DNA of 64,000 nt from an uncultured delta proteobacterium. Lineage in GTDB: Bacteria > Myxococcota_A > Polyangia > Polyangiales > Polyangiaceae. A model generated the notes under the pieces. It did not search any database, was not told the DNA's origin, and was given only the letters and a program-made list of their open reading frames with translations. The translations under genes were made by a program, and so were the position numbers. This document shows, in pieces, positions 14,365-26,735 of this stretch; position 1 is the stretch's first letter; every line of letters starts with the position of its first letter. The stretch is from the NCBI GenBank assembly GCA_963782055.1, contig CAWAIF010000003.1:3072001-3136000 (forward strand). Direction: 5' to 3'.

Positions 14365-15294
14365 TCAGCGCACCGCGGCGCGGGACGCGGCGAGCGCCGC
14401 CGTCCAGTCGGCGGCGCACCTGAGCGGGTCGTCCCCGGGTCGCAGGCCGGCGCAGGCGAGCGTGTCGCGGCGCGGGGCGAGGAGCATGTACTCGCCACGC
14501 GTCACGAAGGGGTAGGTGCCGCGCCAGCCCAGCTCGATCACGGCCTGGTCGTGCTGGGCCCGCTCGCGCACGTCGCTCGCGTGCAGCTCGGCCAGCTTGG
14601 CGGCGATGCCGGCGCGCGTTTGCGGGTCGTCCGCCAGCGCATAGGCGCGCTCCAGCCCGACGATGGCGGCGTTGCGCTGCCCCTGCCGGTCGAGCAGGTA
14701 GGCCGCGCTGATGGAGTGCGACGGGTCGTCGCCCAGCTCCACGGCCCGCGACAGGGCGTGGGCCCCGTCCGCGCGCCAGCGCTCCGCCTCCGCCTTGGAG
14801 GAGAGATACGTCGGCGCCATGAACGCCAGAAACTGCCCGTAGTGCTCCCAGACCTCGTAGTCGTCCGGTCGCTCGCGTGTGCCCCGCTCCAGGATGCGCC
14901 GCGCGGTCCGCACGTCCTGCTCGGTCCCGACAGGGTAGTGATAGACCAGCAGCGTGTCGGCGTAGTGGTAGACCGGCGCGTAATCCGGCTCCAGCTCCAG
15001 GATGGCGTCCATGTAGCGAGACGCGTCCGGGAAGGTGCGCTTCTCCGCCCAGTGCATGCCGTACTCCACCCGCAGCTTGGCCCAGAGCATGTCCACCGTC
15101 GCGGCGTCGTAGCCCAGCGTGGCGAGCTTGAGCTCGGCGGGCGGAGGGAAGAGGTAGACGTCCTGCCGCTCCTTCGTCTCGTGCAGCGTCGTCGCGAGGC
15201 CCGGCTGCGTCGCCGCCACCACCGCCCCGCCAGTCAGCAGGATGAGCACCAGCGCCGGCACCGCGCTCGGCTCGTGCCTCGCGGCGGCGGTCAT
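14365..15294 (-). CDS. Pilin-locus accessory protein with N-terminal TM and TPR-like helices (possibly myxobacterial PilG-like)
   Basis: N-terminal hydrophobic segment, LGYDAATVDMLW, helical repeats; ATG overlaps stop of upstream pilin. Confidence 0.55.
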   Translation of the reverse strand: MTAAARHEPSAVPALVLILLTGGAVVAATQPGLATTLHETKERQDVYLFPPPAELKLATLGYDAATVDMLWAKLRVEYGMHWAEKRTFPDASRYMDAILELEPDYAPVYHYADTLLVYHYPVGTEQDVRTARRILERGTRERPDDYEVWEHYGQFLAFMAPTYLSSKAEAERWRADGAHALSRAVELGDDPSHSISAAYLLDRQGQRNAAIVGLERAYALADDPQTRAGIAAKLAELHASDVRERAQHDQAVIELGWRGTYPFVTRGEYMLLAPRRDTLACAGLRPGDDPLRCAADWTAALAASRAAVR

Positions 15295-15827
15295 TCGAGC
15301 TCCGCCTCCACCCGCATGCCGGGCAGCACGCGCGCGCCCCTGGCGTCGTCCACGCCGTCGATCGCGAAGCTGCTCGTCGTGCCGTCGCCGTCCAGATCCC
15401 CGTGCGCGTGCGCCGAGAAGTGAGCCTGCGTGGCGTCGTGGCTCGCGTCCAGCTCGAAGGAGAAGGCGTGGGGTACGCCGTCCGGTGCAGGCTTGAACCC
15501 GAGCGCCTTCCATGTCGGGTGTTCCCAGAGCGCCGGCGGGTCCGCCACCGGCTTGCCACGCGGCGGCACGGCGGGAGTGAGCGGGGCGGAGCCTGGGAAC
15601 GCCTCGTTCGGCCCCTTGCCCTGCGCGCCCGCGACCGCGGCCTCCCCGATGCGCTTCAGGCCATCCACCGGCTCCGAGAGTCGCGACGCGTGCAGGTTGC
15701 GCACGAAGGCGGGCACCGAGACCGCCAGCAGCGAGCCCACGAGGGCGAAGCCGATGGCCGCCTCCAGCGCCGTCAGGCCTCGCTGCCGGCCGCGCCGGCG
15801 CAGGACGACGATGCGCGCCCTCCGCAT
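15291..15827 (-). CDS. Type IV pilin-like protein (minor)
   Basis: Basic leader RQRG|LTALE, hydrophobic helix, C-terminal AHGDLDGDGTTSSF. Confidence 0.8.
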   Translation of the reverse strand: MRRARIVVLRRRGRQRGLTALEAAIGFALVGSLLAVSVPAFVRNLHASRLSEPVDGLKRIGEAAVAGAQGKGPNEAFPGSAPLTPAVPPRGKPVADPPALWEHPTWKALGFKPAPDGVPHAFSFELDASHDATQAHFSAHAHGDLDGDGTTSSFAIDGVDDARGARVLPGMRVEAELE

Positions 15828-16381
15828 CACTCCTCCGGGTCGATGCGCTCGATCGCCGGGTCCACCTTCGCGGTGAGGGTGGAGTCCGCCGAAACGTGCG
15901 CGCGGAAGGTCGACGTCCTGCCGTTTCCGTCCAGATCGCCGTGGGCCTCGGCCGTGCCCTGCGCGGACGGCCCGCTCCCGCGCGACTCGAACGAGTAAGC
16001 GTAGTACTGCGGCGTGGAGATGGAGAAGCGCATGTCCAGCCACGGAGAGACCGACCAGTCCGCCACGGCGCTCTGGTAACGCTTCCCCCGCACGTCGGTG
16101 AGGTCCGCGGGGACGCTCGCGCGCGAGGACGGCGGGAAGTGCCGCATCGCCTTGGCGGCGTCCGGCTTGGTGCCCGCCGGCTGCAGGCTGTCCGACTCGT
16201 CGTAGTAGACGGCGGCGGCCTGCGCGATGCCCGTCGTCGAGCCCACCGCCTCCGCCGTCTTGCTGTGGCGTACGTAGCGGGCCAGCCCGTACATCGCGAG
16301 CGCCGCGAGCAGGGCGGTGAGGCCGATAAGGTTCATCAGCTCGAGCATGCTGAAGCCTCGCGCGCGGGAGAGCGCGGGCAT
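15827..16381 (-). CDS. Type IV pilin-like protein, paralogue of 23915..24499
   Basis: RARG|FSMLE leader; SKTAEA, PQYYAY, GDLDGNG, terminal PEE shared with the major pilin. Confidence 0.85.
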   Translation of the reverse strand: MPALSRARGFSMLELMNLIGLTALLAALAMYGLARYVRHSKTAEAVGSTTGIAQAAAVYYDESDSLQPAGTKPDAAKAMRHFPPSSRASVPADLTDVRGKRYQSAVADWSVSPWLDMRFSISTPQYYAYSFESRGSGPSAQGTAEAHGDLDGNGRTSTFRAHVSADSTLTAKVDPAIERIDPEE

Positions 16382-16478
16382 GTTAGGACGGTACGCAGGC
16401 GCCGGCACGGAAGCCACGAAGCTACCATAGCGCGGGCCCCCGTCGCCAAGAAGCGCGGCCAGGCCCGCGCCGAGCCCG

Positions 16479-25122: not shown

Positions 25123-25135
25123 CGGTCGAGGCACA

Positions 25136-25151
25136 TGCAGCGGTCGTGCCA
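25136..25151 (-). promoter_or_regulatory. Sigma54 -24/-12 promoter of pilin genes
   Basis: TGGCACGACCGCTGCA, near-consensus, immediately downstream of a sigma54 activator gene. Confidence 0.75.
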
Positions 25152-25250
25152 GAGGCATCTTCCCCCGGATTTCGCGGCAGGTTGGGGCTCCGAGGGGCTC
25201 CGACTGACAATTTCCGTCACCCCGCCCAACAAAGATCGTCACTCGCCGCA

Positions 25251-26735
25251 TCACGCACGCTCCTTCCCAGGCTCCTGCGTCTCCAGCTTCACGCGGCTCT
25301 CCGACGGCGCCTCCTGGTCCTCCTCGGTGGCCATCGCCAGCTTCTGGAGGCGGTAGCGCAGGCTCCGGAGCGAGACGCCCAGCAGCTTGGCCGCGCTGGT
25401 GCGCACGCCCCCGGTCTTCTCCAGCGCCTGGAGGATCAGGCGGCGCTCCGCCTCGCCCAGGACCTGGTCCAGCTCGCAGCCCTCCTCGGGCAGGTGCAGC
25501 AGCTCCGGGGTCGGCTGCGCCGACGCGCCGCCCACCTCCCGCGGCAGATCGCCTAGGCCGATGATGCTGCTCTCTGCCAGCGCCACCGCCCGCTCCACCA
25601 CGTTCTCCAGCTCGCGCACGTTGCCCGGGAAGGAGTAGGCGTCGAGCGCGCGAAGGGCGTCGGCGGAGAAGCCGTCCATCACCTTGCCGTGCTCCGCGGC
25701 GCACCGCCGCAGGAAGTGCTCGGCGAGCTCGCCGATGTCCTCCCGCCGCTCGCGCAGAGGAGGCAGCTCGATGCGGATGACGTTCAGGCGGTAGTACAGG
25801 TCCTGGCGGAACTTGCCCGCCTTGACGTCCTCCTCCACGTTGCGGTTGGTCGCCGCGACGACGCGCACGTCCACAGGGAGCTCGGCGGTGGCCCCCACGC
25901 CGCGCACCTTGCGCTCCTGGACGACGCGCAGCAGCTTCACCTGGAGCTGCGGCGCGAGCTCGCCCACCTCGTCGAGGAGCACGGTGCCGCCGTCGGCGTC
26001 GCGGAAGATCCCCGCGTGCTGGCGGCTCGCGCCGGTGAAGGCGCCCTTCTCGTGGCCGAAGAGCTCGCTCTCCATGAGCTCCTCCGGGATGGCGCCGCAG
26101 TTGACGACCAGGAACGGCTTGCCGGTCCGGTCGCTCTGCTCGTGGATGGCGCGCGCGACGCGCTCCTTGCCGGTGCCGCTCTCGCCCGTGATGAGCACGG
26201 TCCCGCGGGAGCTCGCGACGCGACCGATGAGGTCCAGCACCCGGCGCATCGCCTCGGAGTGGCCGAGCAGGCCCTTCGGCCTGGCGCGGTCCACCTGCGC
26301 GCGCAGTCGCTCGTTCTCGGCATACAGCGCGCGCTTCTCCAGCGCCTTGGCGACGAGCGCCTTGAGCTCGGAGGTCGCGAACGGCTTGGTGACGAAGTCG
26401 TACGCGCCCCGCTTCATGGCGTCGACGGCCGTCTCCATCGCGCCGTACGCCGTCATGACGATGACCTCGGTGTGCTGGCTGCGGTTCCGGGCGGTGGTGA
26501 GCACGTCGAGCCCGGAGCCGTCGGGCATCATGAGATCGGTGATGACCAGATCGAAGGGGGAGGGCGCCCCGCGGACCGCCTCGCACGCCTCGGCGAAGCC
26601 GGCGGCGAGGGCCACCTCGTGCCCCTCCCGCCGCAGCAGGATGGAGAGCATGTCGCGAAGCCCGCGCTCATCGTCGGCGACGAGGATGCGGGGCTTGCGC
26701 CCGAGCACCGGGGGTTCCGAGACGACCTTGGGCAT
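25251..26735 (-). CDS. pilR: Sigma54-dependent response regulator, PilR-like
   Basis: Receiver (ADDE, DLMMPDGSG), GESGTGKE, GAFTGA, WPGN-type FPGNVREL, Fis HTH; directly upstream of pilins. Confidence 0.85.
   Translation of the reverse strand: MPKVVSEPPVLGRKPRILVADDERGLRDMLSILLRREGHEVALAAGFAEACEAVRGAPSPFDLVITDLMMPDGSGLDVLTTARNRSQHTEVIVMTAYGAMETAVDAMKRGAYDFVTKPFATSELKALVAKALEKRALYAENERLRAQVDRARPKGLLGHSEAMRRVLDLIGRVASSRGTVLITGESGTGKERVARAIHEQSDRTGKPFLVVNCGAIPEELMESELFGHEKGAFTGASRQHAGIFRDADGGTVLLDEVGELAPQLQVKLLRVVQERKVRGVGATAELPVDVRVVAATNRNVEEDVKAGKFRQDLYYRLNVIRIELPPLRERREDIGELAEHFLRRCAAEHGKVMDGFSADALRALDAYSFPGNVRELENVVERAVALAESSIIGLGDLPREVGGASAQPTPELLHLPEEGCELDQVLGEAERRLILQALEKTGGVRTSAAKLLGVSLRSLRYRLQKLAMATEEDQEAPSESRVKLETQEPGKERA

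Follow-up and report, generated by a model that had tools for sequence, protein, structure and literature searches.

A pilin locus with an exchangeable slot of TMTC-like and other GT-C genes behind pilA: candidate pilin glycosyltransferases in an uncultured member of the Polyangiaceae

Here, we analysed a type IV pilin locus on a 64-kb stretch of DNA (the window) of an uncultured member of the Polyangiaceae (genome G000; 7.58 Mb, 97% complete), in which four genes for predicted membrane glycosyltransferases with a C-type fold (GT-C), named GT1 to GT4, are embedded among four pilin genes. Nine of the ten genes follow each other on the minus strand in the order pilR, pil1, pilA, GT1, GT2, GT3, pil3, pil4 and a tetratricopeptide repeat (TPR) accessory gene, and GT4 is opposed to them; all ten were read on the frame with a third-position G+C content of about 0.85-1.0. 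Order and orientation agree with a first-pass annotation made from the sequence alone, which had proposed that the four enzymes glycosylate the pilins step by step. The features are:

25251-26735, minus strand: PilR-type sigma-54 response regulator (REC-AAA+-HTH_8; Pfam Sigma54_activat E 2e-70, Response_reg, HTH_8)
25137-25151, minus strand: -24/-12 site resembling a sigma-54 promoter, shortly before pil1, the lone match in the window
24565-25122, minus strand: type IV pilin pil1 (G/FTLVE; N_methyl E 2e-6; myxobacterial PilA model E 1.5e-12, below cut-off)
23915-24499, minus strand: PilA (G/FTLIE) with a Ser/Thr-rich globular domain and 4 Cys (N_methyl E 8e-10; NF041775 E 9e-14, below cut-off)
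23853-23886, minus strand: 15-bp hairpin resembling a terminator, with a T-rich tail, in the gap from pilA to GT1 (z -2.55)
22142-23809, minus strand: GT1, TMTC-like GT-C with C-terminal TPR domain (555 aa; upstream starts possible up to 23845)
20331-22145, minus strand: GT2, PMT_2-type GT-C (match to PMT_2 at its cut-off, E 7.7e-6) that has a DDER motif and ends in a small alpha/beta domain
18706-20334, minus strand: GT3, second TMTC-like GT-C with weak TPR (30% identical to GT1, sister clade)
16479-18683, plus strand: GT4, YfhO/PTPS_related-like predicted GT-C, opposed (by ESM Atlas neighbours; no family match)
15827-16381, minus strand: type IV pilin pil3 (G/FSMLE; 36% identity to pilA nearly full-length, E 8e-24)
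15291-15827, minus strand: type IV pilin pil4 (G/LTALE; NF041775 E 9e-5; similarity to pilA E 2e-9; conserved)
14365-15294, minus strand: TPR accessory protein with a single transmembrane (TM) segment, in PilG position (found in 57 of 61 genomes, with one exception as a single copy)

Class III signal peptides, the sigma-54/PilR motif and the presence of PilB and PilQ in the genome (both over cut-off on C3, elsewhere on the chromosome) identify a type IVa pilin locus. It fits the main pilin operon, because the sigma-54-type site, the hairpin after pilA and the remote PilB/PilQ genes are in line with this role. An orthologue of pilR, the start of which may also lie a few codons later, heads the pilin locus in most relatives; pilS is not beside pilR, the gene upstream being a Ser/Thr kinase. 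With the sigma-54 consensus used, 0.61 matches per 64 kb are expected by chance; in 13 of 61 loci, the motif lies shortly before pil1 or pilA. We predict pil1 to be the first gene of the pilin transcript, and pilA, matched in 58 of the 61 genomes, is likely the major pilin. The pilins had been described as Ser/Thr-rich, which holds for pilA and pil3, with Ser plus Thr fractions after residue 65 of 0.22 and 0.19 (proteome median 0.10, 99th percentile 0.20), but not for pil1 (0.12) and pil4 (0.10). The accessory gene had been called PilG-like before, a name that goes by the gene order of M. xanthus and not by sequence; its position is borne out by distant homologues, behind which lie genes with ABC ATPase motifs and membrane genes of permease size (L126, L127, L137, L138, L140). 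Two PilA paralogues elsewhere in the genome, C3:4487952-4488545 (61% identical to pilA) and C3:681329-681922, have the globular domain and a called N-terminus without canonical prepilin cleavage motif.

GT1 and GT3 had been likened to the TMTC family by their motifs, and these are indeed found in both: WDDEF, YYRPL, LLPVNSEAVVWIVGRFD, CKE and DRYAY in GT1, and LDDAT, YYRPL, HPATADIVAYVGGRQD, SRE and DRYAY in GT3, with the DD motif of the loop present in 98% and 97% of 308 family sequences. The AlphaFold2 model of GT1 (predicted local distance difference test, pLDDT, 93.6) bears out the expected GT-C fold: with VIA-align, its TM domain matches Pmt2 at Z 20.6 (root-mean-square deviation, rmsd, 4.5 over 343 aa) and ArnT at Z 19.7, and Pmt2, ArnT, Pmt4, AglB and ALG12 all lie at Z 18-21. 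No TMTC or TMEM260 chain is among the 50 VIA-align structure matches listed for GT1. Foldseek with full GT1 gave TPR matches throughout, the GT-C match coming from VIA-align, and a PDB sequence search with GT1 returned TPR proteins only, one with a TM-only profile nothing. TPRs had been claimed for both enzymes; GT1 has them (residues 416-567 of the model; TPR_19 E 1e-14), whereas GT3 shows a single sub-threshold repeat (E 0.001). GT3, which matches the family profile at E 3.9e-96 while being part of that profile itself, is predicted to be a GT-C enzyme by homology to GT1 alone.

Animal TMTC and TMEM260 are protein O-mannosyltransferases, and prokaryotic homologues have already been noted, for TMTC in PMC7801869 and for TMEM260 in PMC10214176. 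The TMTC motifs of PMC7801869 (DD, YRP, Asp before TM4, KE and (E/D)RxxY) are matched in GT1, and GT3 has RE for KE. Like animal TMTC1-4 (CAZy GT105), which act on cadherins in the endoplasmic reticulum, GT1 combines a TM domain with C-terminal TPRs; unlike them, as judged from their published description, the bacterial proteins lack the SHKS and DW motifs, carry D in place of E in ERxxY, have fewer TPRs and miss DUF1736. At E 0.1, nothing in the genome matches Pfam TMTC_DUF1736 (PF08409), and neither does any of 16 aligned family members. A relative found by the TM profile, P0200, matches this model at E 1.2e-5 (25.6 bits versus a cut-off of 27), and a profile of pilin-linked TM domains aligns with P0200 at HHalign probability 100 over 395 columns, i.e. 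the whole TM domain. Since the DUF1736 model misses them, yet their relative P0200 comes near its cut-off, we class GT1 and GT3 as TMTC-like and not as TMTC. GT1 is our candidate pilin O-glycosyltransferase.

Alternatively, GT1 and GT3 might mainly serve as membrane chaperones or assembly aids for pilins, with little or no sugar transfer. Accessory genes of the TfpY type, which lie 3' of pilA, help in assembly but do not glycosylate (PMC11841053), and GT3 carries K-to-R and E-to-D exchanges at family-conserved positions. However, DD, RP, GRxD and RxxY are all retained in both GT1 and GT3, and TfpY-like proteins, with three TM segments and about 240 aa, are unlike either of them. Hence, we consider a mainly chaperone-like role very improbable.

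The remaining two transferases belong to other families. GT2 resembles Pmt2 even in a model of lower confidence than that of GT1 (pLDDT 63.5; VIA-align Z 24.0, rmsd 3.8, 344 aa), which again agrees with the predicted GT-C fold; its best 20 VIA-align matches are GT-C-fold or GPI-transamidase chains, and both fold searches rank GT-C structures first. The DDER motif is invariant in five of five sequences. Profile matches to the TMTC and PMT_2 families had been suggested as a check, and the outcome is split between GT2, which meets PMT_2 at its cut-off, and GT1 and GT3, which miss DUF1736. Orthologues of GT2 lie in the slot of a congener, G001, in reversed orientation, and in three pilin-free islands (L063-L065); orthologues with 48-49% identity come from Polyangiaceae. 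The target of GT2 is uncertain. The overlap of stop and start codons described for the co-oriented transferases is seen between GT2 and GT3 (ATGA), but between GT1 and GT2 (TTGA) only with a TTG start, the gene caller having preferred a later GTG. For GT4, the previously suggested PTPS/YfhO likeness appears in language-model features only: YfhO is found in 34-54% of members of its ESM Atlas neighbours at 0.99, which are mostly from Myxococcota, and PTPS_related occurs there as well, but GT4 has no Pfam match at E 0.05, YfhO (PF09586) included, and no NCBIfam match. Of an acidic motif in the first external loop, GT4 shows one Asp, which the single homologue aligned with it has as well. Two database relatives exist, further pilin loci with homologues are L010 and L035, and none was found in 150 genomes of the class. 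In Bacillus subtilis, the three-component YfhO/CsbB GT-C system modifies lipoteichoic acid (LTA; PMC5836110). GT4 shares with it the YfhO-bearing nearest clusters and the logic of a lipid-phosphate sugar, and differs in having neither a Pfam YfhO match nor an adjacent synthase of glycosyltransferase family 2. Because YfhO acts on teichoic acid, the target of GT4 is left uncertain; LTA would not be expected in a Gram-negative host.

The backbone pilR-pil1-pilA-slot-pil3-pil4-accessory gene recurs in the first 40 loci, pil3 being the conserved right flank, whereas the stretch after pilA is hypervariable. The locus is thus a conserved pilin backbone with an exchangeable slot after pilA, a feature that the first-pass annotation had no means of seeing. 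The slot holds four GT-C genes in G000; GT1, GT3, a split third TMTC-like gene and GT2 in G001; one TMEM260-like gene in G002; a TMEM260-like gene with a sugar module in G003; GT1 alone in G004; and nothing in G005, and for G006 (84% complete) no pilA locus was found. Within the genus, three genomes hence have a TMTC-like slot, two a TMEM260-like slot and one an empty slot. In G002 and G003, the sole TMEM260-like gene of each genome is the one in the slot, the G002 copy matching human TMEM260 (PDB 9rql; Pfam PF11028) at E 4e-32; a TMEM260-like gene also fills the slot of G025. G000 (97% complete), G001 and G004, with their TMTC-like slots, gave no TMEM260 match; TMEM260-like genes are the alternative filling and do not occur in the window. 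That TMTC-like genes are swapped for TMEM260-like ones in the same slot within a single genus is the most telling fact of our analysis. GT1 orthologues lie directly 3' of pilA in G001, G004 and G078, and GT3 orthologues in the pilin loci of G001, G013 and G078. Across the 27 loci of the family with both flanks, scored by eye after exclusion of loci without synteny or truncated at the end of a contig (the gene caller overlooks some genes, for which the gaps in part of the loci were inspected), eight have TMTC-like genes among the pilin genes, three TMEM260-like genes, two other probable GT-C genes, two only a sulfatase-type membrane protein, one an unknown membrane protein, and eleven are empty. 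Stems of at least 12 bp lie 3' of pilA in 22 of 36 loci, behind filled and empty slots alike, in a count made without shuffle control.

Do the four enzymes then form one fixed pathway, in which GT1 and GT3, guided by TPRs, initiate a pilin O-glycan that GT2 and GT4 extend, as the first-pass annotation had it? Co-orientation of GT1-GT2-GT3 with overlapping or nearly overlapping ends would fit, as would the joint presence of GT1, GT3 and GT2 in G001, the likeness of GT2 to ALG12/ArnT-type folds as much as to Pmt, and the GT4 homologues at two other pilin loci. All four together, however, occur in no other fetched locus: GT1 stands alone in G004, GT1 and GT3 are accompanied by neither GT2 nor GT4 in G078, GT2 is reversed in G001 and found without pilins in three islands, and GT4 is rare and placed on the other strand. 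The stepwise four-enzyme scheme is thus not supported, and we regard it as improbable.

Linkage of TMTC-like genes to pilin loci, defined as a distance of up to 10 kb from pilA or the accessory gene, was assessed among the matches listed, with the window's own genome excluded and with a profile that contained no linked genes beyond the two of the window. In the first sample, 23 of 118 TMTC-like matches, from 15 of 45 genomes, were linked versus 0.45 expected, and a held-out phylum sample gave 12 of 85 matches in 10 of 41 genomes versus 0.33; as the counts include kin and the expectation ignores contig ends, these values are enrichments and not p-values. The held-out sample left out the first 61 genomes as well as genomes without anchor, and 69 weaker matches are not in its list. 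The recurrent pilin linkage anticipated from the window is therefore borne out far above chance. TMEM260-like genes were linked in 4 of 65 cases versus 0.28 expected, and at 15 kb a TMTC-like or TMEM260-like gene was linked in 20 of 56 anchored genomes. The positions differ: TMTC-like genes lie in pil operons upstream of pilS/pilR (L126, L127, L138, where gene order and size suggest pilT/pilC as neighbours), between a pilin and the accessory gene (L129, L130, L139), after the accessory gene (L128, L132) and sometimes within pilB-T-C operons. In a FastTree phylogeny of 78 TM domains (midpoint root, weak deep nodes), pilin-linked genes fall into at least eight clades, so that the pilin link does not go back to one inherited event; the clades of GT1 and GT3 are sisters (support 0.992), with pilin linkage in six of the eight members of known context.

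A precedent for such a locus is known. TfpW (AAM52060.1), the pilin D-arabinofuranosyltransferase of P. aeruginosa group IV (Pa5196, PA7), is a GT-C enzyme with 11 predicted TM segments, a DDX motif and, at its C-terminus, a TPR domain in the periplasm, and is encoded right after pilA (bioRxiv 10.1101/2020.04.19.049825). Its gene belongs to a set of pilin accessory genes that can replace one another, and its donor genes lie elsewhere (bioRxiv 10.1101/2020.04.19.049825, PMC11841053). The contrast to known pilin systems drawn by the first-pass annotation was thus overstated, since TfpW itself combines GT-C and TPR behind pilA. Like TfpW, GT1 is a GT-C+TPR protein encoded 3' of pilA, after about 70-105 nt with a hairpin, in an exchangeable cassette; the comparison is with the published description of TfpW. 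The TfpW motif YX6PFX7P is found in none of the 308 family sequences, GT1 and GT3 included, although Y-x6-P occurs at the matching loop in 194 of them (GT1 and GT3 are without the Tyr). Further differences are that the slot combines GT-C genes from different families, two to four at a time, that TMTC-like and TMEM260-like genes take each other's place, and that no D-arabinofuranose (D-Araf) cluster was seen here. Unlike PglL/TfpO oligosaccharyltransferases, none of GT1-4 matches Wzy_C; two Wzy_C genes lie elsewhere in the genome. By analogy, the locus appears to work like a TfpW cassette.

We suggest that GT1 and GT3 probably place a monosaccharide, delivered as a lipid phosphate made in trans, onto pilin Ser/Thr residues in the periplasm, with GT2 and GT4 as optional extras. 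PilR and sigma-54 would drive pil1-pilA, and the hairpin 3' of pilA would pass a fraction of transcription on to GT1-GT2-GT3. A family 2 synthase encoded elsewhere would load a single sugar on undecaprenyl phosphate, to be exported by a GtrA-type flippase, and GT1 and GT3 would transfer it via the DD loop to a membrane-resident pilin held by the TPR domain. GT2 and GT4 may lengthen or modify the glycan, or their target may be another part of the envelope. A change of slot content would give the pilus a different surface, much as the pilin accessory genes do in P. aeruginosa. That this proposal is somewhat better than an even bet follows from the combination of GT-C fold, DD loop and TPR, the linkage, the TMTC-like/TMEM260-like exchange, the donor candidates and the TfpW precedent.

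Several observations weigh against pilin glycosylation by these enzymes. The slot is dispensable, because it is empty in 11 of the 27 family loci, and it holds neither a donor synthase nor a flippase in the window. Some slots carry desaturases, methyltransferases or a spermidine-synthase-like membrane protein, and this non-sugar cargo suggests an insertion hotspot. PilA has a Ser plus Thr fraction of 0.19 in TMTC/TMEM260-bearing loci (n = 12) versus 0.18 in empty ones (n = 7; p = 0.48). Apart from the kin contained in the linkage counts, 95 of the 118 TMTC-like matches are unlinked to pilins, no pilA-like gene lies within about 6 kb in any of the 40 unlinked loci retrieved, L087 is a gene of the GT3 clade without pilin linkage, and the genome of the window has three further TMTC-like genes remote from pilins. 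The TMTC-like family is very large, the TM profile finding 59,515 clusters at E 1e-30, with no substrate found in the literature searched. Three of the four GT2 orthologue loci, moreover, are the islands without pilin, which contain heptose-pathway-like genes and a Dpm1-like synthase. Such observations could be explained if the slot were an insertion hotspot for envelope-modification genes, with GT-C enzymes that act on other proteins, exopolysaccharide or lipids and that owe their place to position or to co-regulation with pilus-driven surface life. Besides the pilin-free GT2 islands, the many unlinked TMTC-like genes, the non-glycosyl cargo and the missing co-variation of pilin Ser/Thr content, this would also suit YfhO-family enzymes, which modify teichoic acids and not proteins (PMC5836110). 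One hotspot does not explain, however, why TMTC-like genes take several distinct pil-operon positions across classes, and the swap of two unrelated protein O-mannosyltransferase families in one slot as well as the predominant pilin linkage of the GT1 and GT3 clades also speak against it. We therefore judge the hotspot explanation unlikely and keep pilin glycosylation by GT1 and GT3 as our working hypothesis.

Which sugar would GT1 and GT3 transfer? Candidate lipid-sugar synthases (C3:288257, C2:231972, C3:6690117), all below NCBIfam cut-offs, and one GtrA are encoded elsewhere in the genome. Mannose can be proposed by analogy only. Heptose is suggested by a sugar island at C3:286038-301241 (L067, L041), the counterpart of the pilin-free islands that hold GT2 orthologues, and this island could make a polyprenyl-phospho-heptose donor; to our knowledge, no such donor has been described. 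It comprises a PMT_2 GT-C, a Dpm1-like fusion of glycosyltransferase family 2, an epimerase, hddC/hddA/gmhA/gmhB-like genes, a transaldolase, methyltransferases and a TMTC-like gene, with all NCBIfam matches below cut-off. A cluster at about 229-237.5 kb of C2 (L066:5085-13505) with a PMT GT-C, a GtrB/PgfS-like synthase, a galE-like gene and a membrane protein of family c1 (see below) is a candidate second lipid-sugar module. Arabinofuranose is conceivable as well, since a DPPR-synthase-like UbiA gene exists, but a D-Araf donor pathway is not established: the gene stands alone at C2:108300-109307 (200.6 bits versus an NCBIfam cut-off of 207), no DprE-like neighbours were seen by length and N-terminus (without family scan), and DprE1 was not found in the genome by ALO match or motif, in a search without a DprE model.

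More tentatively, bacterial relatives of TMTC and TMEM260 may be interchangeable pilin glycosyltransferases that myxobacteria swap, along with extender and phospho-form genes, in one slot, resulting in a lineage-specific code of the pilus surface. If so, a TMTC-like family with about 60,000 sequence clusters would gain its first substrate, and this would point to pilin-type folded domains as the kind of acceptor that is ancestral. A very large bacterial GT-C family would gain a named, purifiable substrate, and a simple bacterial model would be at hand of how TPR-bearing GT-C enzymes choose folded domains. The slot would also be a candidate source of strain-specific pilus surfaces for social motility or phage escape, the latter by analogy with TfpO and TfpW, for which it is known (PMC11841053); nothing in the analysis spoke for the kin recognition that the first-pass annotation had also considered. 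A GT-C+TPR gene after pilA in an exchangeable cassette as such is already known from TfpW. In the open-access literature, we found neither a pilin link of TMTC-like or TMEM260-like enzymes nor pilin glycosylation in myxobacteria. A survey of Geobacter pilus loci reportedly lists glycosyltransferases near deltaproteobacterial pilA, which could lower the novelty. Sister species with TMTC-like, TMEM260-like or empty slots provide a natural comparison set.

Other slot contents of relatives were recorded as well. Family c1 comprises Pfam-less membrane proteins directly 3' of pilA in three genera (L020:3075-4844, L022:625-2355, L033:4761-6350); with an HHalign probability of 63 and an Atlas neighbour auto-named mannosyltransferase, it is a probable further GT-C family, and of the slot families c1, c7 and c10 it can be said that they are likely GT-C enzymes or of unknown nature. 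Sulfatase-domain membrane proteins in the slot (L011:4669-6786, L024:5332-7293, L019:7839-9761) may, by analogy with Neisseria PptA, be phospho-form transferases for pilin. Large membrane proteins, all of one cluster, lie beside pilin genes at L011:8309-11620, L015:1913-3340 and L018:8530-11700, two of them with a spermidine-synthase-like domain. The third TMTC-like gene of G001 (L001:9964-12058) is split over two frames by a frameshift or an assembly error. Three tandem TMTC-like genes lie between accessory gene and pil4 in G058 (L071:8744-14071), and in L103, L109 and L114 TMTC-like and TMEM260-like genes are clustered with no pilin match. In or near the slot of L004, L020, L073 and L017, a module recurs that consists of a flippase-like LPG_synthase_TM protein, a glycosyltransferase of family 2, a radical SAM/SPASM protein, a 300-aa protein and an epimerase, and is accompanied by a c1-family membrane protein in L004, L020 and L073. 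A hopanoid reading of this module was considered, for which HpnA is far below cut-off.

At the borders of the pilin locus, the Ser/Thr kinase upstream of pilR (26871-30950, minus strand) has a PEGA domain and takes the place usually held by pilS; it adjoins the pilin locus in many relatives and is preceded by a Pfam-less protein of 899 aa (30235-32934, minus strand). On the other side lies a MarR-family gene (13670-14308, plus strand), which has close paralogues elsewhere in the genome (L043, L046, L070).

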